A stretch of DNA of 63,928 nucleotides, counting the filler, from Folioceros fuciformis (taxonomy: Eukaryota), in the NCBI GenBank assembly GCA_049999805.1. It is 5 parts of 5 records of this genome, joined end to end, with 100 filler letters (N's around TTAATTAATTAA, not from the genome) between each part and the next. Parts side by side here need not be neighbours in the genome. Positions count along the whole stretch, not along the records: positions 38,777 to 59,437 come from JBNGIO010005835.1; 4 more parts are not named here. One strand, given 5' to 3'. The notes beneath the pieces were generated by a model. The model saw only the letters and a program-made list of their open reading frames with translations. It did no database searches and was not told the DNA's origin. Made by a program: the position numbers and the translations under genes. Positions 8,601-62,329 of the stretch are shown piece after piece (the stretch's first letter is position 1; every line of letters starts with the position of its first letter).

Positions 8601-8831
8601 ATAGGCAAGTCCACCAGGAGCGGCACCTCCTCAGCCCCTGTCAAGAGTGGACACGCCATAGCCAACATAGAGGTTAGTGAACCCACACTAGCAGCTGCCA
8701 TCTTCGATCAAGCATGCAAACCCGGTTTAGTCGCTGGTGCCAGGTGGCTCACGTACCTATCAAACTCAAGGTAGCTTTAGCAGGAGTTCGTGCCACATGG
8801 TTGCTTCATTCTGGGGCCAGTCACCACTATG
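5650..8831 (+). mobile_element. Degenerate Ty3/gypsy retrotransposon, 5' part (LTR ending ~6048, tRNA-iMet PBS, gag, start of protease); interrupted by a solo LTR and cut by a copia element
   Basis: PBS TGGTATCAGAGCC at 6053-6065 after ...GTAGCA. Gag-like text DWLDKIDKYL...LLEGYAY*WW, QQGTIQEYCDKF; knuckle C-x2-C-x4-H-x4-C (CLTCTASDHGSKSC) at ~8523; protease-like WLLHSGASHHYV at ~8798-8832. In-frame stops. LTR start is approximate. Confidence 0.75.
7425..7766. mobile_element. Solo LTR (342 bp) inserted in gypsy gag
   Basis: TGAAGG...CCTACA termini flanked by ATGG (7421-7424 and 7767-7770). Removing it restores the frame ...QELHGEAFTADEVRALGEPMGEIKWEVQEG... Confidence 0.8.
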
Positions 8832-12300: not shown

Positions 12301-14023
12301 CACAAGCCTCGCAAAGAGGAGGTGTTGACGAAATTCGGGGAAGCTTATCATGATACAAGTCCTGCTGAGTCGTGGCCAGGAGCCGGGCTGGATTAAGATG
12401 TCCAAGCCGACAATGCCAAAGGAGAGCGTCACCTGGGTGGGATCTCCTTGAAGGCTGGTCTCCATGTGAGGGAACCGCCAGGGAAGTAGCTGCCGGAAGC
12501 ACGGGCTGACCTGTGAAAACATACAAGTCATGACGCGGACGTCCTCTAGCAACAACCACACGAGGGTTAGAAGACCGATATAGAAGACAATCGCCTGAAC
12601 CAAACTCTAGGCGAAAGGAGCCGTCCTTGACAAGCTGTCGAACAGAGATGAGATTCTTGGCCATCTGGGGAACATGTAACACATCAGTAAGCATCATGTG
12701 GGATCCATCAGCCAGAGTGAAGGCGACGGAGCCAATCCCCGCAATGGAGAGGCCAGAATCATCTCCAAGAAGTACGAAGCGCTGAGTGTCAGCAGCCGCC
12801 TCATACGTGGTAAACATGGTCTTGTGACTACAGATGTGCGTGGACGCAGCAGAATCAAGCAGCCAGGACTGCCTGTACTCAAATGCCACAAGACACATGG
12901 TGAGAGCAATTCCAGGTTGAGAAGGATTCTTGGCCTTAGTCGAGACAGTAGCCGAGTTGGCAGTACGAGGCTCTCGCTTGGCCTCACCAGCTTGCTTCTT
13001 CCTGCACTCCCTTTCCCAATGACCGGGCGTTTGGCACCAATTGCACGTGCCTTGTCGCTTCGTGGTCTTGGAAGAGGAGCCAGCCGAGGGAGCAGGCTTG
13101 TCGGAACCTTGTGAATTGTTCCTGTGTTTAGGTTTTGTAGAATTCTTACGCTGTTGTTGACGTCCTTTGGCGACGAACATGACCCGGTCTCCTCCGTGTT
13201 TTGAAGTCCCGACATTGAACCTGGCAGCCTCCTCTTGAAGGAGAGCTCCAGCTATCTCGGACACGGTGATGTTGGGTACCATACCCGACTGCACAGCCTG
13301 ATGTGCATTTCTCACCGTTTGGTTTTGTGAGGAGACAAAGGTCTGGTAGCTAGCAGGGAGGCTAGCCAATAACTGAACAGCCGCTTCAAATTCTGTGATG
13401 GTTGTGCCTAGAGCAGCAAGCTGAGCCCGTAGATATCTAAACTTGCTAACGTGTTGAGCAACGCTATCATTATGACCCATACGCAGAGAGTAAAACTCTA
13501 GACGTACTGTGACCAACGTCATAACGTTAGTAGATTGATAGATATCAGTGATTTGCTTCCAAGCTTCTGCTGATGTGGACGCACCATCCGTGTGGTGTAA
13601 TGTAACCTCGTCAAGGCCAGAGATCAACATCTGCATGGCTTGACGATCTTGACGAACCCAAGCGTCAAGGGCAACCGGATTACCGATGGGCTTGGGAAAA
13701 GTTCCTTCAACAATTGGGAGAAGATCCCTTGTGTTGAGGGCAGTCTTCATGCGCTTAGACCACACTTCAAACTTCGTGCCGTTAAATCTATCCTTTTCCT
13801 TAAAATCAGTGTTGATGTTAACGATATTGAAGTAAGGTTGGAGGCCTACTGTTGGTTGAGGTGGAATAGGGCCGGCTGGACCGCTAGGAGGTGAGGTGGG
13901 TGGTGGACTGCCCATCGGCACGCCCAAAGGTGGTGACGGGGGTCTGGATCCTTGCCGTGATGGTGACCCAAAGGGCCCCGCACCTGGACCAAACCCGGAC
14001 CCGGAGCTAGAAGCGCCTGCCAT
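9395..14023 (-). CDS. Ty1/copia Gag-Pol polyprotein (gag, CCHC, protease, GAG-pre-integrase, integrase, RT, RNase H) with one in-frame TGA at 9755-9757
   Basis: CNWCQTPGHWEREC; WLLDSAAS; LWHCRLGH...CEAC; VHVDLCGP, RSDNAGE, QNGVAE; KARLVAKG, LYVDD; DADWA, STE*EY, CDN, RTKHI, ADVLTK, in copia domain order. Confidence 0.95.
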
Positions 14024-14182
14024 CTTTCGTGAACTTGTCTTCAACTCGTAAGCCGACAATATGTTGTGACACAAGGCCGAGAGTACGAGTTAAGAACAAA
14101 GCACGAATTACATATAATAAGATTATTACTCCTTAACTCTTAGAGTCCAACCAACATAGTTCCTCCCTTGATACAAGTGAGC

Positions 14183-14380
14183 CTAAGGGAGTGGAGAAGG
14201 TTCAATAGGTTGCTCGCTAACTTCAGTAGAGGGATCTCTCACTTCAGCACTTTTGGGGCTTGACTCAAGGCCTTGAAACTCTTGAAGTTGAGTTGCCAAG
14301 TAAAGGAGGTCTTCGTTGGCGTTGGCCACTGATTGCCAAAGAGTGAGTAGTCTATCACGTCGAGCCGGGGGATCAAGTGA
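14183..14380 (-). CDS. 3' end of a putative accessory ORF upstream of copia A gag (runs into gap)
   Basis: Open frame SLDPPARRDRLLTLWQSVANANEDLLYLATQLQEFQGLESSPKSAEVRDPSTEVSEQPIEPSPLP* ending ~160 nt before the gag ATG; short, so could be chance. Confidence 0.4.
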   Translation of the reverse strand, partial: SLDPPARRDRLLTLWQSVANANEDLLYLATQLQEFQGLESSPKSAEVRDPSTEVSEQPIEPSPLP

Positions 14381-14480
14381 NNNNNNNNNNNNNNNNNNNN
14401 NNNNNNNNNNNNNNNNNNNNNNNNTTAATTAATTAANNNNNNNNNNNNNNNNNNNNNNNNNNNNNNNNNNNNNNNNNNNN

Positions 14481-16240
14481 GTCACTCTCCATCATTTGTT
14501 TAATCAATGTTCATTATACAAAAACTCGCTTCCGCGATTTATAGCATACAAAAGTCTGATATGATGGAGGAAGTGTGAGCAAAAGGTGAGCCACAGCGTC
14601 CTCCTCTGAAATAGTTGAATTCAGTTGAGCAAGTCGAGATCGAAGTTGTCGAAACTTGCTAGTGTGGGCAGCCACACTATCCCCTTCGCGCATTTTCAAG
14701 GTATAAAATTCATGCTGAATTGTACATTTAGTCATCATTGTCTTAACAGCATATGTGTTGACAAGCTGATTCCAAATCTGGTGTGCCTTTGTAAGATATT
14801 CCACATCTGGAATCAAGACTTCGTCAAGCCAGTAACCAAAATGGCAACCGCAATCTCATTTATTGTGTTCCATTTGTCTAAATCAGCCAGTATGACTTGT
14901 GGGGAGGCCGTTCCAGCAGCAGGGAGCAAAGGCTCCTTATAGCTACCGTCAACAACAGTCCACACTCCTCGTGCACGCAAGGTAGTCTGCATTCGAACTC
15001 TCCATACTTCGAACTTGGTGCCGTTAAACCTGTCTTGGCCTTTCAAATCTGTTGTAAATGATGGAGCTGTAGACATACTGACTATTTGTTGATGCTGTGC
15101 AGGGGGTATAAGTGGAGAAAGAAGAGATGGTGGGCTAGAGGAAGGACTACCCAACTTACGTTGACGACGAAGGTAAGGAGACAAGGGGAAATTCAACAGG
15201 TCTCTTGTAGACATACAAAAATAAGGCTGATAAAGGCAGTTAAGGTTGAGAAAGCATGTTTAGGGTTTGATTGAACTTTCAGCAGAAAAAGTTTAACTTA
15301 AACTACTGACTTCTTTTCTAGAGCACGATTGGAGTCAGGTGAAGCGGTTAATAACTGCCTGTGAAACGTCAGCGGAAGCAAAAAGGCCAAAAGGCCATAG
15401 AATTCATAGGGCATTTGAATGCAATGATGCCTACACTAGAAAAGATCACAAATGTTAGTTCACTCTGATCGCCCCTCATCAGAGGGCCGCAGGATCATGT
15501 TTAAAATCTGTAATTGTCTAGAGATTTTACTAATTTCAAATGAAAATTGAGAAATAATTTTATGAATTTTAAAATCTGTGCAATCCAGACGTTTAGAGAA
15601 TGCCTCTTGTCGCTGAACAACGGCATTCACAGTACCTTCTATAACTTGTACCTCTGATTCAGAATGTGAAGGATCAATTGCAGATGTGCTTGCAGGCTCA
15701 GTACATGGTGACGGTGCAGAAGTTGGCCTCTTAACAAATGGCTTATTTGAGCATGGAGCCTTTTTAAACAAACGTCCACAATTGCAGCATGGGAGAGTAG
15801 TGCCAATTGTAGCAGGTCTGTAATATAAATTATCACGGCCTTTGTTGCGCGGATCATTTTCAGGAATTAGAAAGTCACGCTCTGACTTGGTTTCTGCATC
15901 GGTCCAAGGGATGCTGGTTGGAATGCCCGAGTGTAGATTGAAGAAGGCTGGTCTAGAGAAGGTCTTAGAAAATCCTCCTCGGCCACCAAGTCCACAATTT
16001 GATCTGTTTCTCGGCATTGCAACCTATAGCATCATCAGCAGCATTTCCGCTCTGATACCATAAGAAAAATAAGAAATGCTAGAAAAGTGTCAAGGCAGCT
16101 TGACATTATGTGTGTGAGAGAGCCAGCAAGCTTGAAATCATAAAATGGATTCAGTTATTGAAATAAACAAAAGTGTAATTTATATAGTCTAAACCTAATA
16201 CGCCTAGGTTAAACATATATACTAAAACGTATATTTTTCA
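14481..16240 (-). mobile_element. Ty1/copia 5' fragment (copia B): short LTR ~16061-16240, PBS 16049-16060, accessory ORF, frameshifted gag; inserted into Athila-like element 1
   Basis: GCTCTGATACCA (PBS reverse complement); gag text DRFNGTKFEVWRVRM, FYTLKMREGDSVAAH, LLTLPPSY. Confidence 0.85.
15460..16017 (-). CDS. Accessory ORF (185 aa) between PBS and gag of copia B; unknown function
   Basis: ATG 32 nt from PBS edge; intact ORF; basic N-terminus MPRNRS, CCNC motif, C-terminal heptad-like helix. Confidence 0.6.
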   Translation of the reverse strand: MPRNRSNCGLGGRGGFSKTFSRPAFFNLHSGIPTSIPWTDAETKSERDFLIPENDPRNKGRDNLYYRPATIGTTLPCCNCGRLFKKAPCSNKPFVKRPTSAPSPCTEPASTSAIDPSHSESEVQVIEGTVNAVVQRQEAFSKRLDCTDFKIHKIISQFSFEISKISRQLQILNMILRPSDEGRSE

Positions 16241-28437: not shown

Positions 28438-28605
28438 TAGCATATAAATCATCACATGCACAAACAAGGTCTTCCATCTAGCATGTAACTCATCATATGC
28501 ACAACCAAGGTCTTCCATCTAGCATGTAACTTATGACATGCACAAACAAGGTCTTTTCACTAGCATGTAACTCATGGCATGCACAAACAAGGTCTCCCAT
28601 AGCAT
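28438..28605 (+). repeat. ~41-bp tandem repeat, about 4 copies
   Basis: tagcatgtaactcatcatatgcacaaacaaggtcttccatc units. Confidence 0.85.
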
Positions 28606-31600
28606 CTTCAAAAAAAACAATTCTTCTCCTTGGAATTACGAGGCTTGCATGATGTTAGCATTGTTAGATTAAAAAATATCCAATTGCTCCATAAACTTAA
28701 ACACATTTTCCATGCATCCAATAATACTCAAACACACCATAGATCGAAATATTACTTATGGAACCATAATTATAATAAAAATAAAAAACCAAAACCACCT
28801 CATGTCCTTGGCACCATCCACAAAGCGCTGCACCCCTACAAAAGAACCCCAAGCGCTGCTCCCAACATAACTTGAACCCCCGTCCTTGCAAAAGCCCAAA
28901 TGGGCCGCGTGTGGTTTGTGGAGTTACTTAAAATACATATGGACCATGGAACTTTAATGGACAATCCGAAACAACCCTTATATCAACCGATGACACTATC
29001 AAAAGTGAGAAAGTCCGGGTTGTAGTTCAGGAGACATGTGGACAACGCAACTCCGGCCCAGATCGGGATCCTCCTTTAACAGTGATTTTACATTGGACCG
29101 CGGTGGTTGAACCGCGCTGTCTCTGCCCACGGGTGCTCGTCAACGGCTGTTCTCTAGGTTTCTTCCGAGCTACGCTAAGGCAGGCGATCGTTGCACACGC
29201 ATACAGTACTGTGCTTTCTACGGGTGATTACATTCTTTGGTCAAATTCCCTAATCACTGGTAATATTTTGCAATACGTCCACTCGATCCTGGCAGCCGGA
29301 TCTCAAGCTCGCTCTGAAGCACAAGAAGGAGCGAAGTGGTGCAGAGTCGGTCATGTCGACTCCTCGAACACCTACATCCATCCTAAAATGGGATGTGACA
29401 CACCCAGCCCACGAGTGGCGGGCTGCAAGAGACCGTGAGGAGGAGGTTTCGTTACAAAAACAGAACTTATATTAGTGGTCCATCTATTCCGACAAAGACA
29501 GGGTGAACAACGCAACGAAGGGCGCCAAACACGGTAGGAGAGCCAAGGAGGTTTGCGGCTTGGGTCCTTGGATCAGATCCTGATTTAATCTTTAAGGAAG
29601 TGTATGTTCGAGGAGCAGCACCGTATCCGTAGGCGTCACCTCCTCCTTCTCCAACGTACTTCCTTCCAGACCTGGGATGCCCGGCACACGTTCGACCTGA
29701 ATGACATAAACTGTAAGTTTGTGAATCATCCCGTCCTGCCCATGGCAGAATGCATTCCGTGGCATGCCCTTGGACTCGTGGACCGCTTGCCAACCAGCCA
29801 TGACATCGCTGCACCTGACTTGGAGCCCGGCACTCGGGACTTGGGACTGAACGTAGTACGTACTTGTTGCTACCGATTCTGTGATTTCGATCATTCGACC
29901 CAACTGGGCTATGCTGTTTAGGGTTTCCAGCGTCTTGCAGTTTTTGTTTGAAGTCGCACCACAGGACACGGCAGACAGATTGAAGCGAGCTTCTCCGATC
30001 ACGGAATCTGCAAGCTGCATTGCGAATGAGAGAGACATCACCCGGCAACGCCATTCGACCTCTTAAGCTCTCTGGCAACGATAACCTCCTGTATGCGACG
30101 GTAGGTGAGGAGGCCTTACCAGCTACTGAACTGCCAGCGATGCAGCGTCTTGCCGAGCCGGCCTCGAATGTCAGATCATTTTCCTGAAGGCTTCTGCTCG
30201 CTCTAGCGTTTCTACTATCGCTGCTGTATGGCTCTCAGCTCAGCGCTCTCCCGTCCTTTCGTAAGCCTCCCTCCTTGGTGACAGACCTTTGCACTCTTAG
30301 ACCTTTGAGGTGAAAGTGAACCCTTTCCGCTCTGCAATTCCAATAAGCTCTCATGATCATTCCAACGGTTGGACAGGTGCTGGTCTAGCTGCCTTGGCAT
30401 CCCTGGCTGTTCTGACCACAATGTGTGTTTCTCTGTAAGAGGAATGCGTGATTGGGAACATTCTGCTCACCGTGGCCGATTTCAGCAAACCAACTGGGAA
30501 CCACTCATTAGGAATTTTGTGATGAAGAAAAGGGCATACCACTGTTCAACATGCATGCCTTGTCTTAGGATACATGTAATTCTTCAGGTGGAGGATCCGA
30601 AAGGATCAACCTTGCCTTTCCGCAAAGAAATCGGAGAAGACGGTGTGTTGCACATGTTCTCAAATAAACCTGCAATTGCTCGTCTCCCAACAGATTGTTC
30701 TTGGTCTTTCCTCAGTGACTTCCTCTCCGCGATTATTGTCTCCATGTAATATCTTCCTTAAACGTTTTAGATGTTGTGTTCACCAGTAATGTTTTACTGT
30801 TATAGAGTGTAGCATTGCACTTAATGATTCTCTCATCAATGAAGTTCGTTTAATACTGTACATACTTATCTGGGAGATGAGAAGGCGAGCCCTCCTTAGC
30901 ACGAGGTAATGTAGGTCCATCTCTTCACATGTCTGTGGTGCATTTACAGTCACAAATGTTGTTCCAAGGGATGCGATGCAACAGTCTGAAAGCCCGTTCC
31001 TGGTTGTACTTGTTCGAGGACGAGGCACCCGTCCCACGACCACACATTGCTGGCCTTCCCATGCGCAGGGCCTGCAAAACATGTGTTGGAATGTGGGCCA
31101 TCCAGCGGGAGTCGTTCGAGTTTGATGCTATGAAAAGAAGCATGTCACGGGCGATCTGAATAGTGATGGCGATAGCGACCATGTCAAGCAAGCGACAGTG
31201 ACGCTCATAAACTTCCTCAAGCAAGCGCCACACCAGCCTGGAGTCATGAACCTCCTGTAGCCAGGAACTCGCAAATTGGATGGATCCGTCGCAACACCTG
31301 CTTCATCCTCCAGTCGTTAACTAGGAAACTTGGAAATCAGAGTAGTTAAACGCCAGTGACTTTACAGCCCATGCTTGCGATGTACGGTGGCGTGCTTTAG
31401 ATCTCGCCCCTGCCTTTCCCTGAATGAATGCCAGAACATCCTACAGGGATGAGAAGGGGAACAGGATATAGTGACTGTCACAGAGATCCCCCGCTTTCTC
31501 GGTCCCCCAGGCGCTCGTCGAACCACAGCTTGGGCATAATTAGCATTGCGAGTCGCGCAGGAACGCTGTAGCAACGCGATTCCCGGGTGCTGCAAAGCAG

Positions 31601-38676: not shown

Positions 38677-39229
38677 NNNNNNNNNNNNNNNNNNNNNNNN
38701 NNNNNNNNNNNNNNNNNNNNTTAATTAATTAANNNNNNNNNNNNNNNNNNNNNNNNNNNNNNNNNNNNNNNNNNNNGACCAAACCTATACCCACTCTTAC
38801 AACCAAACCCACTATTTCCTGGTCAATTAACCCAATTAGCACAAAGAAAAATAGGAAAAATGACCAGAAAATCAAGGAAAATTAGGGAAAATAAGTTGAA
38901 AAAGAAAACCAAACCATACCACTATTAACCCTTTTTCAACCAAAACAAACTACTACCCCAAACTTTGGAGGTTCACACTCCCCTTCATTCTGATCAGGCG
39001 TGGGACAACCCTTGCTATCCAGCAATCGACTAGACCTCNNNNNNNNNNNNNNNNNNNNNNNNNNNNNNNNNNNNNNNNNNNNNNNNNNNNNNNNNNNNNN
39101 NNNNNNNNNNNNNNNNNNNNNNNNNNNNNNNNNNNNNNAGGAAAAATAAGTTGAAAAAGAAAACCAAACCATACCACTATTAACCCTTTTTCAACCAAAA
39201 CAGACTACTACCCCAAACTTTGGAGGTTC

Positions 39230-42200
39230 ACACCATGCTTTCTTTTTTGCCTGTACCTCCTGCATGACGGCCAGTGATTGTTCTCTGTCTTCCATGTGTC
39301 TCACCAAGCTAACCAATCTTTCCAGTTGACTCCCTCCAACAATCATGTGGTTAGGCTCCCCTCCTTTGTGTCATTCAGTCAGCACCTGCAGGATTTGTGC
39401 CTCAGTTACCCACAACCTTTCTCTTCCATCCAGCCCCACCCGATACATGTTGTCCTCGTGACAAATGAATGGGCGTGCATAGTGCACAAAGGCATGTTGT
39501 TGTTGCTTGCAAAGATCTGAGGGACTGCTCCCCAACCCCAGGAACTCGGATATCTTACTGTAAGTAGGCCTGGTGGGTCTCCCCTTCTCATTTCCTGCCG
39601 CACTGCCATTGCTCATTCTCTTCACATTTGGTGCGGCCGCTTCCTCCTCTGGCCCTGCTGCGAACAAAGCTTCATCGGAAAAATCCTCCTCCTTATCACA
39701 AGCCTCCTCCTCCATCTTCAGCATTCACATGTTTGCTGCCTTCTTTAAGCTCTTCAGAGTCTTGGTTTGGTGGTCTGTCCCCCTATTCAGCTATTGTGTA
39801 TGCATCTTCTACATCCGCCCCACCACTTTCCACAACTGGCGTTCCTTCTTCCACTACCTCGGTAGTAACTTCTGCAATAGTGCAGTCAAATGTCACTCCA
39901 TAACAACTCACCAGGTGGGGGATGTTCCTCTGGTAGTTCCTCTCCTCATCCGACCAAGAAATGTGGGCGAATGGAAACCTCTCTTTCTCATCCTCCCATC
40001 CAACTGAGTCTTTTGCAAAGGTGTATCCATCGGTCTCCGTAGGTTTTTCTCCTGCATACGTGTCTCGACTCCAGGATAAGCACATCCTTCCTTCCTTAAC
40101 CTTGGGATCACAATCCAGAGGTTTGAAGCTTACTTCCTTCCTTCCCCACTTGAAGGTACAACACGCTCCATACATCCACTTCCGGCCAATCAACACATCA
40201 TACCTAGGAGCTTTCTGTTTGATGACCACATAGTCCATGAGGTACAGAATGGTACCAATATGGGTCAGCACTCCAGTTACCTCCCCTACAGGTGCCATCT
40301 TAGACATATCTGCGAGTCACAGCACCTTAGCCGTGCGCTGTATCTCCAGCCCTAGCTTCCGGGCTGTATCCTCCGTCATGAAGGACCACGAGAGGCGGAG
40401 ATTTACTGCGGGAGGCCAAGCAAATCTTTTTTGTTCAACTTGTGGGCAGGAAGGGCACTCGAGACCCAACTCCCCGCAGATGATGGTGCAGCTGTTGGAC
40501 TATGAGGAAAGGGGAGGAAGGAATGTACCTGGTAGACACCTACCAGATTCAGGAGGCAACTCCAATTTCTAGGTATCCGAGGACTCCGTACCCTACGAAT
40601 CTGCGGAATCCTATTGGCATGGGAATGCGAAATCAGGTGGTAAGAACAACTGGCCAGCTGAATGCTATCCAGTGCTACAACTGCCAAGGATTTGGGCATC
40701 TTGCAAGTAGTTGTCCTTCAGCAACTCATCACAGTTGTCCTTCAGCAACTTGTCAAGGGAACAGTAATTTTCAGAGGCTATATATGGACTGCAAGCAGCC
40801 AGGGCATGTGGCATGTAGTGTTCTTTGCCAGCCACTGAAGAAGCACGTGAGAATTGCTCAACCTCCAGTCACAGCAACCCAACCATCCATGGGGCAAAAT
40901 TCAGTACCAGCGATGCATGTCAAGAATGCACTCATGGCGGTGTGGGAGGACGTTGAACCCAACATGTTGAGAAGTCTGGAGGGCTTGGAGGACCTGGACA
41001 ATGGGTACTATGAGGAGAAACCTGCTATGGCTGTCCGAACGCGGAGGGAGAAACGGGATGCCAACAAAAAGGTGGATGCTTCCATGAGAGGAGGGCGGGG
41101 AAGAAAGGAAAGAAGGGCAGAATGGTAGCTCTGGACACGTCTAAAGATGAGGACGCCTCGACTTCATCAGACAGTGAAGGACAGGAGACGGAACAACCAA
41201 GGAATGGTACAACAACCCAACCAAGCGAACCAAGGGGGAATCGTACGGGTCTAGGGAATGAGGAGCAAAGCATGGGCGTTGCAGCAAATGCTAGTGGCAA
41301 GGTGCAGGAACTAGAGAGTTCAGAAACGGAGTCACGAGGTCTGGTGGAAAACCCTCAGGAGAAAAATATAAGATAGTGTTTCTGCCATATGTCAAAAAGG
41401 AGGTGATGGAGATGATCTGAGAGGAACTGGAGCAGTCCCCAACCGTTCCACCTGCACTAGTTTCTAGTCGACTTGATTCCAATACCGTTGTACCTGATTC
41501 CACTACCACTGTACCTGAAGGAGCTACCACGGTTGCTAAAGCTTGGGTTAGTGCAAGCGTTAAGAAGGGGAGAGCACAGGCAGATGAGGCCTTCAATTTG
41601 GCCAAGGCTGTCATGGACCACAAGATTATGGTAACATTGGGACAGCTTCTCCAAGACAACCCGCAATACCGCCAGCAAATTCGGAGAGCATTGAAGGCAG
41701 CCCAACCCAAGAAGAAGCGGAGACTCCCCAAGCTAAGGAAGAAGCCACTTGCTGTGAACATGGTGGCCATGGCTGATCAAGGTCTCGCGGAGTTGCAAAT
41801 AGAGATCTCGAGGTGTATAATTAAGAAGGTACCTTTGGATACTAGTTCTGGGGTCTGCTATTTCACTTTCTTGGCCGCGTTCTCCTCTTCCTTCCTTGCC
41901 TGTTCAGCGTCCTTCCTTGCGCTTGCGACCTCCTGTTTTGCCTTCACCAGCTCCTTCCCTCACGAGTGGCGCTTCCACTTCGCTTCGATTTTTGATTTTT
42001 TCTTTTTCTTTCTCCGGCTGCGCTCATCACTCGACGAATCTCCCTTAGAGCTGTTGCTGGTTTCTTCCTCTGTGGAGCTGTCCGAGGAGTCCTGGGAAGA
42101 GCTCTCTTCCTCCGTTGAATCATCGTCCAAGGACGAGGAGTACTTCTTCTTGGATTTCTTCTTGTCTCCCCGGCCCTTCCTCTCATCCTTCCTTGATTTC

Positions 42201-48053: not shown

Positions 48054-50537
48054 ATGTGTGCTTGGGGCACCACACGGAAGGATGCATTTTTGTTGGGCCC
48101 GTGCTCGTTGGGCCATCAAGGTTGTGGGAGTTGCAGGTCTGCCGCCTTTCTTAAATCCAGGAAGCGAGAGTTGGCAAACAGCCAAGCCGCGCGATGCACC
48201 TTTTTCCAAAGGGGGCTAGTCTGTTCCAGGGGATGTCTGGCTGGAGAGGGATCGTGCAGCGAGAGTTCTCGTCAGGAGCGCTTGTGGCGGAAATTCTTTC
48301 TGGACCCGGCAGGTTGGTGGGATAGCAGGCAACAAAAGAAGAGCTCCCGGTCGCCGGACTTCCGACACAGGAAAAGCCAGGAGGTCCTGTGGGTAAACAA
48401 CTTCTACAAGCCACATTGGGTAGATGCGCAGCTGGCCGCTTTGGATATGCGTATGGGCCGGTGTGCCACAACATCCAATTGCCCTCCCAGACCCGCAAGA
48501 TGCGAAGGGGGTGTGACGCCTGAGACCGTGATCGAATTATGTCAGCAGAGGCTGGTAGATAAAGCCGTGGAGGCCATGGGAGTTCTGGTGGGCACAGGAT
48601 GTCATGTTTCGAAGTCTCTTTTTTATGCTGTTCTCAACGAGTGTGTGGCTTACAAGGATCTGCATCTGGTTCAGCGAGTTCACGTTCTCAGCAGGAAGCA
48701 GGGGTATGAGTCGGACACGTTCTTGTGCAATCATATCCTGCGGATGTATGGCTCGCATGCCAGGCTGCAGGAAACTATGGATTTCTTCCATATGGTTGCC
48801 AAACCAGATGCCTTCACATGGTCTGCCATAATCTCCGCGCACGTTGAACGTGGACAACACAAGCGGGCCCTAGACCTGTATCGAAGGATGCGCACGTCCG
48901 GTGTGAAGCCAGATGGCCATGTGTTTGTGGCAGCTCTACAGGCTTGTGCGAGGGGAGAGGACTTGAGAACTGGGCAGCAGGTGCATGCTGACGTGTTGGC
49001 CACTATCCTTGAGCCTCATTTGGTTGTTTGGAATTGCTTGGTGGACATGTATGCAAAGTGTAGCAGGTTGGATGACGCCCGACGAGTGTTTGACGGAGTT
49101 GGTCAGAAAGATGTTGTGACTTGGAATGTTATGATAGCCGGGTACGCTCAGCAGGGCGTAGGCCAGGAAGCCTTTCGTCTTTACAGTGCAATGCAAGAGG
49201 AGGGCCTGGCTGCACCCGACAGTGTGACATTTGTGTCTCTTCTGCAAGCATGCGCAAGTGTAGGCACCCCGGCTCTGGAGAATGGGAAGCATCTTCATAC
49301 AACAGTAAGAGAACGGGGCCATGAAGCTGATCTGTTCGTTGGCAATAGTCTGGTGAACATGTATACAAAATGCGGCAGCTTGGAAGACGCTCAGACAGTG
49401 TTCGACAGGCTTGTGCAAAAAGATGTAATCACGTGGAATGCCATGATAGCTGGTTATTCCCAGCAAGGGATGGGTCAGGAAGCCTTACATCTCTACAGTG
49501 CTATGCAAAGAGATGGCACCGTTGTACCTAATACTGTGACATTTCTATGTCTTCTGCAAGCATGTGCACATATGGCAGCCCTGGATCTGGGAAGGCAGCT
49601 TCATGTTCAGATCAAAGAACAAGGGCTTCAAGGTGAAGTGTCTCTGGCTACCAGCTTGATAAACATGTATGCCAGGTCGGGGAGCATGGCTGATGCACAG
49701 CAGGTGTTTGATACGTTGTCTAAGAGAGATATTGTCACCTGGAATGCACTGATTGCTGGTTACACCTACCAAGGAGATGGTGATCGGGTCTTCAACTTGG
49801 TTCAGAAATTGGAAGAGGATGGTTTGAAGCCAGTTGCGACCACCTTCCTTAATGTACTATTAGTATGCAGTCACATAGGTCTACTGGATAAGGGACAAAA
49901 GTATTTCGAGGCTATGAGCAAACACTATTCCATCACTCCCACGGTACAACACTACGCATGCATGTTGGATCTCCTGGGCCGTGCAGGCCGATTGGATGAG
50001 GCGCTAGCTTTGGCAAGGACAATGTTGGTACCTCCCGATGCTGTGGTTTGGGCCGCCCTTTTGGGTGCTTGTCAAAAGTGGAACAATGTGGAGGTGGGAC
50101 GTCGTGCGTTTGACGAAGCAGTGAAGCTGAATCATAAAGATGCTGCGGCGTATGTTCTGATGTCAAACATATATGCCGGTGCCCAGATGTGGGAACAGGT
50201 ACGTGAGATTCAGGAGAGGAGGGTAGCACGTGGGGCATGGAAGCAGCCAGGTCAGAGCTGGTGGACAGACATGGAAGGGCTGGTGCTTAGTTTCTTGGTG
50301 AAGGATAGAACACCTCCGACAAGTGGATCTATTGTGGCGTATCGTTTTAGAATGCATGAGGATGTCACAGCAGCCAGCTACCCTCGAGATCGGATCCATA
50401 GTCAGAGTCATGAAACGGATGTAGTCGAAACGCGGGAACTCGGAAAGATGGGCAAACCAGGGAACCCACATTTTTTTCTACATGTCCGTAACGGCACGAA
50501 ACTGGAATACACAGGCTACGCCAGCGGGATAGTATAA
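48054..50537 (+). CDS. PLS-class PPR protein with E domains and WW-type PG box, N-terminal OSB-type PDF motif; DYW deaminase core absent
   Basis: Repeating LVDMYAKC / DVVTWN.MIAGY / TF.SLLQAC; E region VWAALLGAC..YVLMSNIYA; KQPGQSWW; N-terminal LWRKFFLDPAGWWDSRQQKKSSRSPDFRHRKSQEVLW..KPHWV. Intronless. Confidence 0.92.
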   Translation: MCAWGTTRKDAFLLGPCSLGHQGCGSCRSAAFLKSRKRELANSQAARCTFFQRGLVCSRGCLAGEGSCSESSRQERLWRKFFLDPAGWWDSRQQKKSSRSPDFRHRKSQEVLWVNNFYKPHWVDAQLAALDMRMGRCATTSNCPPRPARCEGGVTPETVIELCQQRLVDKAVEAMGVLVGTGCHVSKSLFYAVLNECVAYKDLHLVQRVHVLSRKQGYESDTFLCNHILRMYGSHARLQETMDFFHMVAKPDAFTWSAIISAHVERGQHKRALDLYRRMRTSGVKPDGHVFVAALQACARGEDLRTGQQVHADVLATILEPHLVVWNCLVDMYAKCSRLDDARRVFDGVGQKDVVTWNVMIAGYAQQGVGQEAFRLYSAMQEEGLAAPDSVTFVSLLQACASVGTPALENGKHLHTTVRERGHEADLFVGNSLVNMYTKCGSLEDAQTVFDRLVQKDVITWNAMIAGYSQQGMGQEALHLYSAMQRDGTVVPNTVTFLCLLQACAHMAALDLGRQLHVQIKEQGLQGEVSLATSLINMYARSGSMADAQQVFDTLSKRDIVTWNALIAGYTYQGDGDRVFNLVQKLEEDGLKPVATTFLNVLLVCSHIGLLDKGQKYFEAMSKHYSITPTVQHYACMLDLLGRAGRLDEALALARTMLVPPDAVVWAALLGACQKWNNVEVGRRAFDEAVKLNHKDAAAYVLMSNIYAGAQMWEQVREIQERRVARGAWKQPGQSWWTDMEGLVLSFLVKDRTPPTSGSIVAYRFRMHEDVTAASYPRDRIHSQSHETDVVETRELGKMGKPGNPHFFLHVRNGTKLEYTGYASGIV

Positions 50538-50955: not shown

Positions 50956-53900
50956 CTAGCTGCTATCCATATATCTTGTGTAGCCTTCCAGGCCCAAACC
51001 TGAAAGATGCTTGTAATGCTTATGCTTTACCAGGCCCTTAGTCAGCACATCTGCCACATTCTCATCTGTATGTACATATCCCACTTTAACAGCATCTCGT
51101 TCCACCACATCTCTAATGTAGTGGTGTTGGATTTCAATGTCTTTAGTGCGGGCGTGGAATCTGGGATTTGCTACTAGGGCTAGGACTGACATGTTGTCAC
51201 ACAATATTGAGGTAGGTCCTTCTTGTGCTTGATCCAGGTCATGTAGGAAGCTCCTCTCCCACTATGCTTCTTTAGATGCATCTGTCAGTGATTTATATTC
51301 CGCCTCTGTGGAAGACAGGGCTATGGAAGATTGTTTCTTACACGACCAATTGACTGCAGCAGAGGCGAGCAAAAAACAATAAGTGGATAAGCTCTTCCTC
51401 GAATCACTATCAGATGCCCAGTCGGCATCAGTGAAGCCTGTCAAGGTAAGCTTTTGTTTTCCGCTCCCTCTGTAGCAGAGCCCATAGCAATGAGTGCCTT
51501 TGAGATATCTGAAGATTCTCTTAACAGCTGACCAGTGCATTCTGCCAGGGTTTTCCAGGAACTGAGATACTGTGCTAACGGAATACTGAATATCTGGACG
51601 TGTCCAGTTAGCAACAAATATCAGGCTCCCAACAGCATGCCTATAAGGTACATGCTGCATATCGCGGGACTCTTCCTCAGACTGTGGGCAATGAAGACTA
51701 GTGAGTTTCATCCCTGTGGAGTAGGGTGTTGTAGCAGGCCTAGCCTCATCCAACTTAAATTTGCGCAAAATATCATTTATATATTTGTGCTGATGTATGA
51801 TGAGCAGGCCTTCGGATCTGACCCTAATAATCTGTACTCCTAGGCAATATTTCAGCTCCCCAATGTCTTTCATGTCAAACTTTGTGCTGAGCATGTGCTT
51901 TACCTCTGCTAACAAAGTCTGGCTGTTAGTTGCGAGGATCACATCATCCACATACAGGGCAAGCACGACAAAATCGGTTCCTCTGCTCAGCCTGTATACA
52001 TTGGAATCTGCTGTGCTCTGCACAAAAGAGATGCTAAGGAGGTAGACATGCATGGTAATATACCATACCCTCCTGCTCTGCTTAAGTCCATAAATGCACT
52101 TTAATAATTTTAGGACTTTCTTAGGGTTTTCTGGATCCTGATAGCCCTCTGGTTGGTACATGTACAGGTCCTCATCAAGATCCCCATACAAGAATGCAGT
52201 GCATACGTCCATTTGCTGGAGATCAAGATCAAGCTCTGCAGCGAGGGCCAACAGAACGCGAATGGACTGAGAACGGACAACAGGTGAAAAAGTTTCCTGA
52301 TAGTCCAGACCCTCCACTTGGGTAAAGCCCCTAGCCACAAGCCTGGCTTTGTATCGGGCAATTTCCCCTTTGGCATTCAGCTTCAATTTGAAAACCCATT
52401 TGCACGAGATGGCTTTACGCCCTGGTGGTAGGTCAACAAGTGTCCAAGTCTTGTTTATAAGAAGAGACTGATACTCCTCCTCCACTGCTGCCTGCCATTT
52501 GGAGCGATCAGGGCCATCAAGTGCTGCTTGGTAGGAAGAAGGTTCCTCTGCAGGAAGAATATCAACAGTGGCTCCGTATACAGCAGCAGCAGTGCGAAAA
52601 TCCATAGACGTGTAACGGGGCTCCTGCCATTGATCAGGAGGTGGCCTGTGACGTGTTGACCAACGAGGGGCAACAGGGGCAGGCTCACCAATTGGATCTG
52701 GATAGAAGCCAAGATCAGCCCGAAGATCTTCATCATCCATAGAACTGGGAACATCATCAACTGCAACAAGATCGGCAGGCCCATCAGTAGGATCCAGGTC
52801 AGTAATCTCCTCAGAAGCAGGGTCTTCAAGATCCGAGGGAGGATCGTAATGAAGGATGTCACCCTGGTCTACTGCAGGGGCAACTGGAGCATGTGCTTTA
52901 CCCCTGTTGCCCCTTGTCGGGGCAACCGAAGGATCGGGAGCTGCTGGCGCTGGAGGAACAACTGCTAGGGGTTGCGTGTCATTAGCCGGGAAGGTGACAG
53001 TATCCGGTGCCTCCTCACCAAAATCTCCCTCTGAAGATGAAGCCTGCTGGGGGTCGGTTGTAACAGGATTGATAGCCTCTAGGAAGGTAACACTCCATGC
53101 AAGGACAATGTCTGTCGTATCAGGGTCATACAGCTTATAGGCCTTCACATTTTCACTGTAGCCAATAAAGATCAGTCTACGAGCTCGATTCTCTAACTTC
53201 TTTCTCTTTTGTGCAGGGATATATGCAAAAGCCTTGGAGCCGAAAATACGCAAGTGAAGCAGACTGGGTTTTCTATGCCAGTATACTTCAAATGGTGTCT
53301 TCCCTTTAACAGAACTGGTCAGCACTCGATTCAAGATGTATGTGGCAGTGACCACTGCCTCTGCCCAGTATTCCTGAGGTAGACCTGCCTAGAGCAGCAT
53401 GCTCCTAGTCATCCCTAGCAAGGTCTGGTTTTTGCGCTCAGCTACACCATTCTGCTGTTGGGTATAAGGAACAATTAGCTGCCGCTGGATACCCTGCTCA
53501 GATAAGTACTCATCGAATTCATGGTTAACAAATTCAGTGCCATTATCGCTGCGAAGGATTTTCAGCGTACAACCGGACTGACGTTGTGCTGTGGGTAACC
53601 AGTCCTTAAAGTAACTAATGGTGTCACTTTTCAGGTGCATGGGGAAGGTCCAAGAGTACCGGCTAAAGTCATCTGTCAACGTCAGGTAATAGAGGACTCC
53701 TCCTAAGGAGGGTGTATGGATTTTTCCTGAAATATCTGCATGTACAAGCTCTAAAACTCGTGTGGCTCTATGTGCAATTTTCGGGAAAGGAAGCTCCTTC
53801 TGTTTTGCAAGAATACATGCCTCACATACGGGCAACTCTTTAAAACAGCTAGGTAAGGGTTCCCTATGACAGCCGAGGTTGGACATGTCAATCAGTTTTT

Positions 53901-56219
53901 TGCGGTTAGCATGCCCTAGGCGAGCATGCCACAAAGATGCAAGCTGACTAGCATTCATGTTGACCGTGTACGCTGCATGGCTTGTGGACGCAGGAGAACA
54001 CTTCTGCTCTAGCCTGTACAGGTCATGATCGAGGACACCTCTAAATGCGCAGATGTTAGGTGAAGATTTTCTATAGAAGCAACAGGCATCATCAACCATA
54101 CGCATCTCATACATGAAAGACAGAGAAAATGTGTTCAAGAGTTTTATGCCACACAGCACACTTGGTCATGATATTAGTGACCTGATAGGTTTTCTCAAGC
54201 TGATTCCAAATCTCAATGCCCTTGGTCAGGTACTCAACATCAGGAACAAGAAGGGTATCCAAGCCATTGATAATGACAGCAACAACAACTTCATTGTGGG
54301 CTGTCCACTTATCTATATCAACTTGGGCACCGGTTTGAGAGTTAGGCTCTGGAAAACTTCCACCCACAACACTCCAGACTCCCCTAGCTATCAGGAGAGC
54401 TTTCATGCGTACCTTCCACACATGGTACAGTTTCCCATTAAACCTATCCTTCTCTTTCAATTCTGATGTGAAAGAGGGACCTGTAGCCATGGTTTGTGTA
54501 CTTGTGACAGGTACTATTGGCAGAAAATTCCAGAAATTGGATATATTAGCAGCCTGCAGGTCCTCTTCCCCCTTCGACGAGGTAGAACTATGATCTGATG
54601 GATCTAAGACTGCACCTAGGCTGATGTCAGATGCACTATGTACACTGCCAGCTAAAGACTCGTCCAAGCTGAGGTCAGATGCACTATGTGCACTTTCGGT
54701 ATTGGACATGTGTAAACCAGCTAAGTCCCTTTCAAAACTATGGTTCAAGAGGAAAAATAGCGAGGTTAGTTATGCTTTGATGTAATTGTCCCTAGAAGAT
54801 GCTCATGTGATACTAACGATGCGTTTCCAGGGGGTTAGTTGGGGGAGACAACCTGAGAGGGGATGGATACATAGTGTATTCAATCCTACACAGGCTAGCT
54901 CCCTCATCCAACTTCCTGGCTGCGTGAAAAGGGTGTAAGTGTGAGAAGGGACACAACTTTTCAAAAAGTATCGTTTGAGTTCTTTACGTAGGGTTTCTAA
55001 TCGACTTTTCTTGGTTTTATGAACAGACATGTCAGTTGACGGACCAATCTCATGCAAAGAGACGCAACCAAGCCAAGGGTCAGCAACACAATTGTGACGC
55101 TTCAGATCAACGCCAAAAGCCACTGTTGATCCTGTACGCCGTTTCGCATCTCCAGCGCTCCCCGCCAGCGGAAGCAGGGTCACAGGAAGGAGTCTCCGCT
55201 CGCACGCAAGAACTCTGTGGAGAATCCTTGACTAAGATCCATCGCACGCATCATTCCAGCAATCTGTGAGATGTTTCTATCAATTCTGGAAATTTGTGTG
55301 TCGATGTAGACTTGCAGACGAGCAACACCGTCTCTCAAGATGTGCTGATTGAACAGGAGTTTTTCAAGGGAAGTCCCAACAGGAACCTCAACTGAAATTT
55401 GCTTTTCTGCAGCCAATTTCTCTACTTGTTTCTTGTATGAAGTAGATTTTTCTACAGCAATTGCGCCGTCTTCTGCAGATGTTTCTCCCTTCAGCCACCT
55501 AAGCGTCCTCTTGTAATTTGGATGATTGCATACTTCTCCAAGGGCTCGCAACTCCCAATCAACAATAGGACCAAATTCAGGGGTGTTAGGAGAAGAGGCT
55601 GAAAGTGTTGACTCCTCAGCACAATTGACCAGTGGTTGAGAACGAGGATCAGGCTGGTTCCTAGCAATGCACCGGGCCCGGTAGAGAGAATCTACTCCTG
55701 AGGTTCTCAACTGCTGTAGCCTAATCGCACGCGCTCTGGAACTTGCTGTGCCTGAGTTTCTAGCAACCCACTGTCGTAGCCGTACGTCGGGGTAGTTGGC
55801 CTCGTACAGATCCAAAACGCTAGCAGCAGGGACTCGACTTGAGTTTTGTAGCCTTCTCTATTGACGTCGATCTGCACGGGATCTACCCNNNNNNNNNNNN
55901 NNNNNNNNNNNNNNNNNNNNNNNNNNNNNNNNNNNNNNNNNNNNNNNNNNNNNNNNNNNNNNNNNNNNNNNNNNNNNNNNNNNNNNNNGGATCTACCCCG
56001 GCGAGGCATTATGTCTTGAGAAAAGTAGAGAGCATTTGGAGCTCTGATACCATGTAAAATATGCGGAGAGCAGTTTGGCTCGACAAAGCTTAATGTCAAA
56101 TAATGAAAAATGATTGCAAAATTGTATGTGTGTATTGTTCAAATACTAAACCCTAAAAACGGTTCACGTATGTTTAACCTAAAAAAACCTTTATACTTAA
56201 TGTTGGCTTTATTTCCAAT
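50956..56219 (-). mobile_element. Ty1/copia element (copia C): LTR 56053-~56219, PBS 56041-56052, accessory ORF, gag with internal deletion (knuckle and protease lost), integrase, RT, RNase H with TAG stops
   Basis: GCTCTGATACCA; KEKDRFNG; LWHARLGH..CEAC; RSDNGTEF; KARLVARG; LYVDD; DADWA; RTKDIEIQHHYIR. Confidence 0.92.
55180..56009 (-). CDS. Accessory ORF (~240 aa) between PBS and gag of copia C, with one TAG if the gap is closed
   Basis: GGATCTACCC occurs on both sides of the N gap; merging gives MPRRGRSRADRRQ*RRLQNSSRVPAASVLDLYEANYPD... in frame with the 211-aa ORF; C-terminal heptads. Confidence 0.6.
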
Positions 56220-57075
56220 AAGCAGCGGGTGGATTCGTCCCCCTCTCCTCAGCTACGGGCCACAATTAATCCTCACTCTTCTCCTCCTCACTCACTCACT
56301 CCTTCATCCACACTTTAGCTCCTCGTCTTCTCACGCGCTCTCTTCTCTCACACACTCTCTTCTTCAACACCTCGATTCAGAACACAGCAAATGGTTCAGG
56401 GAATAAGGGAAGAAATCTCTCCTTCCACTCCGCGCAGCTGGCGGATTCGTCCCCCTCACCACTCACTACGGACCACAGTCGACCGTTCAAGGAATAAGGG
56501 AAGGAGAAGCTCTCCCTCCACTCCAGCAGCTGGTGGATTCGTCCCCCTCACTTTCCACTGCATAACACATATGGCCGTTCAAGGAATAAGGGAAGGAGAT
56601 GCTCCTTCCACTCTGCGCAGCTTTTAGATTCGTCCCCCTCACTTTCAGCTGTGGAGCAAAAGTTCTCCACCACCCCTAGGAGCATCTCGCACTCACTGCC
56701 CACCCATGCATCTCTAATCCAGCCATGGACAGCGAAGGGGATCTCAATTGGGAGAAGTCTTCAACATTTGCTAATCATAGAGGCACCAACAGGCCCCTTT
56801 GTACAAAGTTTCCAAGAGCAGGAGCCACAACCGCTATAAAGTCTAGTTCTAAAAACAATCAACTTTAAAAAGTGTGCCCTTAATGGCAAGCGGCACCAGG
56901 TCAAGATAGCATCTAGCCAAATCTCATCTAAATCAACTTTAAAAAAGGTGCCCTTAATGGCAGGCATCTCTAGGTCAAGATAGCATCTTGCCAAATCTTA
57001 TCTAAATCAACTTTAAAAAAGGTGCCCTTAATGGCAGGCGACATCAGGTCAAGATAGCGACTTGCCAAATCTTAT
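56220..57075 (+). repeat. Dispersed repeat copy 2, ending in ~72-bp tandem units
   Basis: Matches 45923-46625; units aaatcaactttaaaaaaggtgcccttaatggcagg...ggtcaagatagcatc x3. Confidence 0.9.
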
Positions 57076-57329
57076 TTAAATACTATTTTAAGATGCAACC
57101 ACTCTTGGCCTACCTTAGCGCCACGCTTTCCTCCTATCCATTCTTTTGGCCCTCCTTCCCCTGCCACAAAATCTTCAGGCTCTCCTTTTATGCTGCTGAT
57201 TGGGCAAATCCTTCCATAAAATATCCACCTCACTCCCGCTGCTGGCTGACCTATCCTGGTTGTCCGTTCTCTGCCCACTAGGCATCCAAGGATGCTGGAG
57301 TGCCCCCTGTCACTCTGGCTGCAGTTATT

Positions 57330-59437: not shown

Positions 59438-59894
59438 NNNNNNNNNNNNNNNNNNNNNNNNNNNNNNNNNNNNNNNNNNNNTTAATTAATTAANNNNNNN
59501 NNNNNNNNNNNNNNNNNNNNNNNNNNNNNNNNNNNNNCAATCAATAAGGATGTTACTTGCTTGCCTCCCCGCAATTGTTATCACTGCTTGGTAGCTTCGT
59601 ATCATGCCCCACCTTCTTTCTTGTAATTCCTACTTGAACTTCTTGAACTTGAGGGTTTGTACTTCTACTTAACCAACTTCTAAATTCCTATTCTACCTTT
59701 GATTTGGCTAACTAACTTCCTACTCCACCTCTATTGTTTAAAAGATGGCTAGTTTGAGAACCCTACCTCCCCTTTGAGCTTGAGGGTTTGTTTCACCTAA
59801 CCAACTTCCTATTCATCTAATTCCTTAAAGGATGCCCAAATTGACAACCCTACCTCCCCACCCTCATACCTTCCTTCTACGTGCATTCTAATGC

Positions 59895-61145: not shown

Positions 61146-62329
61146 TGATTCTACAGTCAAAGAACAAAACACAATCACGTTAGACGTAACACAAGCGAAG
61201 ACATGAATCAAGATATAAAGCTTGAATACCATATCAAACCCTAAACCCAAACTACTTCATCAAAAAAACAAAAACACCACAATCAATACATGAGCAACAA
61301 GACAATCACCAGCATACAACAAAGACAAGACTTACAAGAGTAGCTACAAGACTTGCTCTCAAAGGCTTGAGAACAGAGCACAATCAACCAAGCACTTGAG
61401 AGAGGCTTGAGGAATGAGCTCAATGAACCAAGCACTTGAGACCTTGAGAAGTGAGCACAAGAGGCCAACATATATAGTCTCAACTACGGTGCTTTTACGA
61501 TGGGCTATACTTTTCAAGTCCACCTTCCATTATTTAATTGTAACACACAAATATATTTAAACTCATAGGTATTTTGAGAGATCTATTAGATTTACTATTC
61601 CATGATTGTTTCGACGTTTGAACTCCATTGTTTCTAAGCAAGATGGTCTTTTTAAACCTTAAGATTTATTTCATAAAAATATATTTAATGAATAGAAGAA
61701 GAAGAGATCCATGGAGGAAATCACATATTTATAAAAAACCTCAAGACTTTATAGAAAAAAAAGAGATGGAAGTTCCATCTACCCTGTGACAAGGNNNNNN
61801 NNNNNNNNNNNNNNNNNNNNNNNNNNNNNNNNNNNNNNTTAATTAATTAANNNNNNNNNNNNNNNNNNNNNNNNNNNNNNNNNNNNNNNNNNNNTGGAAC
61901 GGAAAAGTTTGGTAATCGGTCTAGGAAAGTCTAACTTGGTTTCTTTTGTTCATAACAGTTCAAAGGGAGGCATGTGGAAGGTAGGTTTTTGGGCATGTGC
62001 CCATGGTAGGTAGTGAGCGGTTGGTGAAGGTTTTTATGGATGTTTTTAGTTCTATTCTGGTAGGTTAAGATAAGAAGATACCTATGTAGTAGGATGTCTA
62101 CCTACATATGTAGAGAGAGTACCTACATATGTAGAGAGAGTACCTACATGGGGAAAATGGAAGATACCTACATAGGTAGGGAAGGTACTTATACAGTAGA
62201 CACCCCACCTACGGCAATGGGGTAGGCAGCCTACCTATGACAATGGGTGGGAATGGTGAGGGAGTCTACCTACGAGGGAGGGTTAGGGAACCTACCTACG
62301 AAGGGAGCAACGAAGAGTCAAGCTCGACT

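Follow-up and report, generated by a model that had tools for sequence, protein, structure and literature searches.

A candidate additional open reading frame upstream of gag in Ty1/copia elements of Folioceros fuciformis

Introduction

Additional open reading frames (ORFs) are common in the long terminal repeat (LTR) retrotransposons of plants yet functionally unexplained, and attention has mostly been given to Ty3/gypsy elements and to the 3' ORF of SIRE. Here we describe a stretch of Folioceros fuciformis DNA (GenBank assembly GCA_049999805.1) in which two Ty1/copia elements, called copia B and copia C below, carry an open frame between their primer binding site (PBS) and gag. The window, i.e., the whole stretch analysed, is 63,928 nucleotides long including filler.

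The described systems that come closest are cited here from parts of the respective papers. Extra ORFs (eORFs) of at least 250 codons were reported from 582 copia and 3372 gypsy elements and are highly heterogeneous and mostly without domains (PMC6317226). The text of that paper names the eORF-3'F of SIRE as the only copia-typical case and, in the part used here, leaves undecided whether eORFs evolve fast or were acquired independently; it also gives tRNA-Met as the primer for most copia elements (PMC6317226). Presence in most copies is what separates such ORFs from one-off gene capture (Vicient and Casacuberta, PMC7264820). Among chromoviruses of the Tekay lineage 5' additional ORFs (5'aORFs) are described from sunflower Tekay 13-2 and from rice RIRE3, RIRE8 and Retrosat-2 (PMC11728184). 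Their products are mostly disordered, with few well-predicted helices, a basic motif resembling a nuclear localization signal and a biased composition, and they have neither sequence similarity between species nor Pfam matches (PMC11728184). Ogre elements have an ORF1 upstream of gag, which in Medicago Mtr70 is 1527 bp long (PMC2533021).

In copia B and copia C a sense ORF that is separate from the polyprotein likewise lies between the 5' LTR/PBS and gag. The B frame has 185 codons and the C frame 239, a stop codon included, so that both fall below the operational threshold of at least 250 codons and would have been missed by it (PMC6317226).

Results

Long sense frames upstream of gag in copia B and copia C

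The window is made of separate contigs that were artificially chained by linkers, with copia C on contig 38777-59437 (JBNGIO010005835.1), copia B on contig 14481-38676 and a third copia element (9755-14380) on another contig. It follows from the linker positions that copia B is truncated at 14481.

14381-14480, 38677-38776, 59438-59537 and 61795-61894: linkers N44-TTAATTAATTAA-N44
16049..16060, minus strand: PBS of copia B, an exact match to TGGTATCAGAGC
15460..16017, minus strand: upstream ORF of copia B (P0001), intact, 185 codons, starting MPRNRS
14481..15214, minus strand: start of gag of copia B, with ATG at 15214, one frameshift near 14820 and the contig end at 14481
56041..56052, minus strand: PBS TGGTATCAGAGC of copia C, an exact match directly after the 5' LTR
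56009..56035, minus strand: short upstream ORF (uORF) of copia C, MLSTFLKT, in frame with the ATG at the LTR/PBS junction (56053-56051)
55989..56009, minus strand: first seven codons of the copia C upstream ORF, MPRRGRS (translation)
55889..55988, no strand: assembly gap of exactly 100 N, an artefact
55858..55860, minus strand: TAG in frame, the 14th codon once the gap is closed (translation)
55183..55857, minus strand: P0002, an open frame of 225 codons behind the TAG, with TGA next at 55182-55180
55186..55371, minus strand: predicted long C-terminal helix of copia C, P0002 residues 163-224, pLDDT 50-67
54710..55179, minus strand: spacer of 470 nt from the upstream ORF to the gag ATG of copia C, with stops in all frames and gag in another frame

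Both upstream frames are longer than expected by chance. The longest open sense frame of the B leader (835 nt) has 187 codons and that of the C leader (1179 nt) has 225, compared with means of 78 and 91 codons in first-order Markov shuffles (3000 per leader), of which 1/3000 reached the observed length in either case; the antisense maxima are 75 codons in the B leader and 96 in the C leader.

The start of the frame is kept in both families. As the first-pass annotation of this DNA had pointed out, the main ATG lies at the same distance from the PBS in the two elements, i.e., 32 from the PBS edge with 31 nt between (56041 to 56009 in C, 16049 to 16017 in B), and the sequences do read MPRRGRS and MPRNRS. 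In addition to the spacing the two have ATGCC and the residues M-P-R-(R/N)-(G)-R-S in common, and the codons for P, the first R and S differ synonymously (CCT/CCG, CGC/AGA and TCC/TCA). Apart from the PBS, AAATGCT and ATGCC, the leader DNA of B and C does not align. Both elements have an ATG at the LTR/PBS junction and a second ATG within AAATGCT (56009-56053 in C, 16024-16061 in B, minus strand), and short uORFs end 0 nt (C) and 6 nt (B) ahead of the main ATG; in C the TAA of the uORF (56011-56009) shares one base with the main ATG in the overlap TAATG. The 12-mer TGGTATCAGAGC, which we take to be complementary to the 3' end of tRNA-Met, was matched three times in the window when one mismatch at most was allowed, each time exactly, where 0.38 matches are expected by chance. 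The window contains no tRNA genes, so that it offers no check of PBS pairing. Depletion of ATG was considered as a sign of leaky scanning and rejected: B shows none, and in C it is mild, with 4 ATGs where 10.1 are expected (p = 0.025).

The two products are laid out alike: the N-terminus is basic, the middle is free, and a heptad helix forms the C-terminus. Over the first 20 residues the net charge amounts to +4 for B and +6 for C. The AlphaFold2 models, run without an alignment, were poor overall (pLDDT 42.8 and 55.5); that of B has a single helix at residues 122-176 (15490-15654), with pLDDT up to 93, and no predicted secondary structure in residues 1-121. When heptad patterns were compared with shuffles, the best 28-residue window was found at residues 150-177 in B (p = 0.003) and at residues 194-221 of P0003 in C (55225-55308; p = 0.023), in both cases inside the predicted C-terminal helix. 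The language-model recognition score of P0001 is 2666, above the 2300 mark.

The N-termini of the B and C gag proteins are 54% identical, and the two elements therefore represent related families, not independent inventions. To call copia C independent, as had been done, was too strong, as there are two families, related by descent (n = 2). In copia B the DUF4219 match of gag (6.6e-06, 26.2 bits) is just under the 27-bit cut-off, and 245 nt containing stops separate the upstream ORF from gag, which is in another frame.

The false gap and the stop codon in copia C

The gap of 100 N that interrupts the upstream frame of copia C is a false gap, an assembly artefact, as had been suspected from a 10-bp overlap. 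The 10-mer GGATCTACCC (plus strand) is found on both sides, at 55879-55888 and 55989-55998, and one contig of DNA run X1 (depth 4.96) and one of run X2 (depth 12.9) join 55878 straight to 55989. At these joints 110 letters are skipped, 10 letters fit either side, and the shorter side is 56 letters long. As X1 and X2 come from one sample and are possibly the source data of the assembly itself, the joint has read-level, non-independent support.

The joined frame was obtained by frame arithmetic, without building the joined sequence. The 21 coding bases before the gap make seven whole codons and the frame behind it repeats GRS and runs on (GRSRADRRQ*RRLQ...), so the frame is kept on closing the gap. 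The closed frame consists of 13 codons, the TAG and 225 codons, i.e., 239 codons followed by TGA. The prediction of a single TAG in the linked frame was borne out, at codon 14, and the ORF behind it, first given as 211 residues, has 225 codons (55857-55183). A tandem-repeat scan of the C region found no tandem array under the ORF (55180-56009). Since copy C is dead (see below), the TAG is most simply a decay mutation and not a programmed signal; a single transition would turn it into a sense codon, and most of the differences between copies in the read contigs are transitions.

Other copies in read contigs

Family copies were viewed as read contigs over a 1.7-kb stretch, not as whole copies. 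Each DNA run has 92-106 contigs on this stretch, in several identity classes, and the ORF region is thus multi-copy and not a one-copy transduction. Within the ORF a skip of 75 nt, a multiple of 3, is present in both X1 and X2. In run X3 nearly every difference over 54600-56300 is either C>T (51) or G>A (37), in contrast to X1 and X2. X3 looks like bisulfite-treated DNA of the same sample, and ten rows in the ORF that were seen in X3 alone were therefore excluded from the variant counts, which were taken from read contigs among the rows listed (40 of 232). Among the indel rows listed (12 of 24), nine fall in the spacer, two in the ORF and one in the LTR; these rows are not independent and were not used as evidence.

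Copia C and its decay

Copy C is a defective and internally deleted member of the Ty1/copia group. It is dead, having lost the protease as well as the C-terminal half of gag and having no complete 3' LTR.

56053..56832, minus strand: 5' LTR of copia C (3' part), ending ...ACA at 56053, with 92-nt and 17-nt tandem arrays inside
54107..54709, minus strand: N-terminal half of gag of copia C, with DUF4219 and Retrotran_gag_2 (profile positions 1-84 of 172)
53389..54114, minus strand: GAG-pre-integrase (gag_pre-integrs) and integrase core (rve), directly abutting the truncated gag
51262..52740, minus strand: reverse transcriptase, RVT_2 (Pfam)

The Pfam scores of the C gag are 5.2e-08 for DUF4219 and 7.7e-10 for Retrotran_gag_2, and the Pfam matches place the integrase (53392-54114 with gag_pre-integrs) upstream of the reverse transcriptase (RT; 51265-52740) on the minus strand, which is the Ty1/copia order. 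The loss of the second half of gag and of the protease is evident when the intact polyprotein of 1422 aa at 9755-14023 is used for comparison. The candidate 3' LTR, a partial second copy at about 45.9-46.6 kb, has about 700 nt in common with the 5' LTR, at 87-95% identity. Copy C thus lacks the two complete LTRs and the full frame for gag, protease, integrase, RT and ribonuclease H that make an intact element. A further tandem array, of 74 nt, lies upstream of the LTR part (56857-57081). A PPR gene that has an E motif and no introns (48054-50537, plus strand) is situated between the truncated pol of copia C and the partial LTR copy.

Other elements and features of the window

The third copia element (9755-14380, minus strand) has an uninterrupted polyprotein of 1422 aa for gag, protease, integrase and RT, with the gag ATG at 14023. 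Upstream of it an open frame of 65 codons (14186-14380) runs off the contig, and five stops separate this frame from gag; the frame contains a heptad segment (p = 0.013).

A Ty3/gypsy-type element (6053-8774, plus strand) has Retrotrans_gag and Ty3_capsid at 8055-8516 and the PBS TGGTATCAGAGC at 6053-6064. Its 1.7-kb leader contains a broken 5' frame, from 6126, with an Arg-rich MARLNRVIGRR, one frameshift, one stop and an N gap. A strong heptad signal is found at 6520-7041 (0/300 shuffles), and the longest frame of the leader taken alone is within chance (p = 0.065). The frame looks like a Tekay-style 5'aORF. A likeness between the C-terminus of the B product and the gypsy leader ORF (p = 0.0025; p = 0.006 with a pattern-keeping shuffle) was rejected as coiled-coil composition, since the reversed sequence gives an equal score, 41.

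A second gap of 100 N (39039-39138) has a 95-nt direct repeat on either side (38884-38978 and 39139-39233, 98% identity) and is probably another false gap of the overlap type. At 28438-28641 there is a 41-nt tandem repeat, with four overlapping 81-nt copies of 60-100% identity. An Rfam scan of the window matched no family.

Discussion

A probable 5' additional ORF in a group of Ty1/copia elements

We lean towards the view that the stretch upstream of gag is a 5'aORF (eORF-5'F) belonging to a group of Ty1/copia elements of this genome, i.e., a separate first cistron for a small basic protein with a C-terminal heptad helix. It is likely that this is, or recently was, a real coding frame with a conserved start and helix. 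The product would have an Arg-rich N-terminus (MPRxRS...), a variable middle and an amphipathic C-terminal heptad helix of about 55-60 residues. The Arg-rich end would bind nucleic acid, perhaps RNA, or target the product to the nucleus, and the helix would let it oligomerise. It is conceivable that such a protein would serve the element as an RNA cofactor in packaging, export, translation or evasion of silencing, as proposed for the Tekay 5'aORF proteins. The upstream ORF would be translated after the short uORFs at the junction ATG and AAATGCT. Scanning would not get past a long first cistron that has ATGs inside it, and gag-pol would therefore need a spliced or internally initiated RNA.

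Several observations weigh against a selected protein. The upstream proteins of B and C are not alignable (BLASTP E = 3.7), and local alignment of the two gave p = 0.35 for the whole proteins and p = 0.15 for the C-termini, or p = 0.24 for the C-termini with a shuffle that keeps the hydrophobic pattern. The C-terminal strings that the first-pass annotation had found alike are present, and a heptad helix is common to them; similarity of sequence is not. The recognition score of P0002 is 2176, below the 2300 mark, and codon usage gave z = 0.31 (B) and 2.16 (C) in a test of low power, whose range was 0.9 to 5.2 for known genes and -1.8 to 2.5 for controls without coding function. There are several ATGs both before and after the start of the upstream ORF. 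Both copies are defective, C as described above and B with its gag frameshift.

The copies in the read contigs point in the same direction. Among the rows listed, the 17 ORF variants seen in X1 or X2 are distributed 3:7:7 over codon positions 1:2:3, with no third-position excess. Inside the ORF run X3 has a skip of 94 nt, a length not divisible by 3, and a -1 indel at 55756 is present in two contigs, one of which also has a +1 indel 6 nt apart. Contigs of higher depth (46 in X1, 68 in X2) join 55819 to 56030 and so skip or replace the start region, and the form that bears the ATG may be a minority among the copies. The lone possible RNA run matched the LTR repeat at 56222-56290 and nothing on the ORF. 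The earlier idea of a fast-evolving selected accessory protein is partly supported: position and start are conserved despite divergence, but the 3:7:7 distribution and the weak codon usage give no evidence of selection.

Searches for relatives also weigh on this side. P0001 and P0002 have no homologues in a collection of 5.8 billion proteins, and Pfam gave nothing above cut-off for the upstream ORFs. HMMER against 1.84 billion representatives produced one match, to a bacterial repeat protein, which was rejected as spurious because it was matched via a repeat. Sequences from the PDB gave no significant match to the upstream ORFs, the ESM Atlas no usable match to P0001 or P0002, and no relatives were found in metagenome contigs scanned with P0002 and the gag alignment or in IMG/VR scanned with the gag alignment and P0001. 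As a control, the best relative of the RT of this element in the protein collection is only 58% identical; a fast-evolving ORF would be unrecognisable at that distance, and the blanks are therefore not proof of uniqueness. The full-text literature searched, to which the additional files of PMC6317226 did not belong, contained no copia 5' ORF with these features; this does not prove absence.

Alternative explanations

Three other explanations have to be considered. First, there may be no selected protein at all but a conserved RNA or DNA element beside the PBS, acting in primer contacts, through the uORFs or as a packaging signal, with the frames as by-products of composition or relics. We consider this unlikely, but it is the strongest of the three. 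It is in line with leaders that have no more than about 50 nt in common from the PBS on (PBS, AAATGCT and ATGCC), with the short uORFs that both elements have there, and with the missing codon-position bias among copies, the weak codon-usage signal, the failure to find homologues and the absence or replacement of the start region in the contigs of higher depth. It fits poorly with two unalignable leaders that each hold a sense frame reached by 1/3000 shuffles when their antisense frames are ordinary. The residues MPR..RS are moreover kept with different codons, and the frames of B, C and the third copia fragment all have a heptad helix at their C-terminal end.

Second, the frames could be remnants of captured pieces of host genes or of an old part of gag, of no service to the element. 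Gene capture by LTR elements is documented (PMC7264820, in the part cited), and the host proteome is outside the collections searched, in which the best RT relative reaches 58%, so that a host source could not have been seen. Independent captures would not produce the same start and layout in two families, the region is multi-copy, nothing in the window, gag included, resembles the frames, and they have no Pfam domain; we therefore think this origin improbable.

Third, a functional leaky stop at codon 14 that doses the long product would suit the 225 open codons after the TAG, among which no in-frame Met occurs until close to the end, but it is very hard to credit, as copy C carries other lesions, the intact B ORF has no stop there, AGA AGG CTA after the TAG is unlike the leaky contexts of plant viruses, and we know of no citable precedent for a leaky stop 13 codons into a cistron.

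Implications

If the stretch is indeed a 5'aORF, a copia 5' ORF with a conserved start and helix and a free middle would be a compact case for asking what such ORFs do, and it illustrates how short additional ORFs escape length cut-offs such as 250 codons. It is tempting to go further and to speculate that the first cistron, fixed in position and combining an Arg-rich motif with a coiled coil, is obligatory as a third gene in a copia clade of this poorly sampled plant lineage, translated after a PBS-embedded uORF (with the TAATG overlap in C), with gag-pol expressed from spliced RNA. We regard this as a long shot. If true, Ty1/copia would have an accessory gene resembling Rev or ORF1p, and the look-alike 5' ORFs of a gypsy element of the same genome would be convergent.

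Comparison with known systems

Small first-cistron or accessory proteins that combine a coiled coil with a basic, nucleic-acid-binding part are known from LINE-1 (ORF1p) and from caulimoviruses (the virion-associated protein). For both the likeness is one of analogy only: neither an RRM nor any other domain was detected by Pfam in the B and C ORFs, in contrast to ORF1p, and the order of the parts differs from that in the caulimovirus protein. Like the eORFs in REXdb, the frames of B and C are extra frames, heterogeneous between families and without a known domain, as far as those eORFs are characterized in the text of PMC6317226. They differ in position from the ORF of SIRE, which that text places downstream of pol, those of B and C lying upstream of gag. 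With Ogre ORF1 they have in common that a separate sense ORF precedes gag. Ogre, however, belongs to the Tat/Ogre branch of Ty3/gypsy, has a tRNA-Arg PBS and a much larger ORF (PMC2533021, in the sections used here), and a plant mobile domain is frequent in Ogre ORF1 according to the text of PMC6317226, whereas the B and C ORFs have no Pfam domain.

The 5'aORFs of Tekay appear to be the closest described relatives in kind, by analogy and within what the cited sections of PMC11728184 cover. In both cases a sense ORF without a Pfam match lies between the 5' LTR and gag, and the likeness extends to a mostly disordered product of biased composition with few helices and a basic motif, and to the lack of sequence similarity, between species in Tekay and between B and C here. 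Tekay is a Ty3/gypsy lineage and its products are about 400 aa long, whereas B and C are Ty1/copia elements with frames of 185-239 codons. The ORF was present in 500 of 523 members of the Tekay family (PMC11728184), whereas those of B and C are known from single copies and read contigs.

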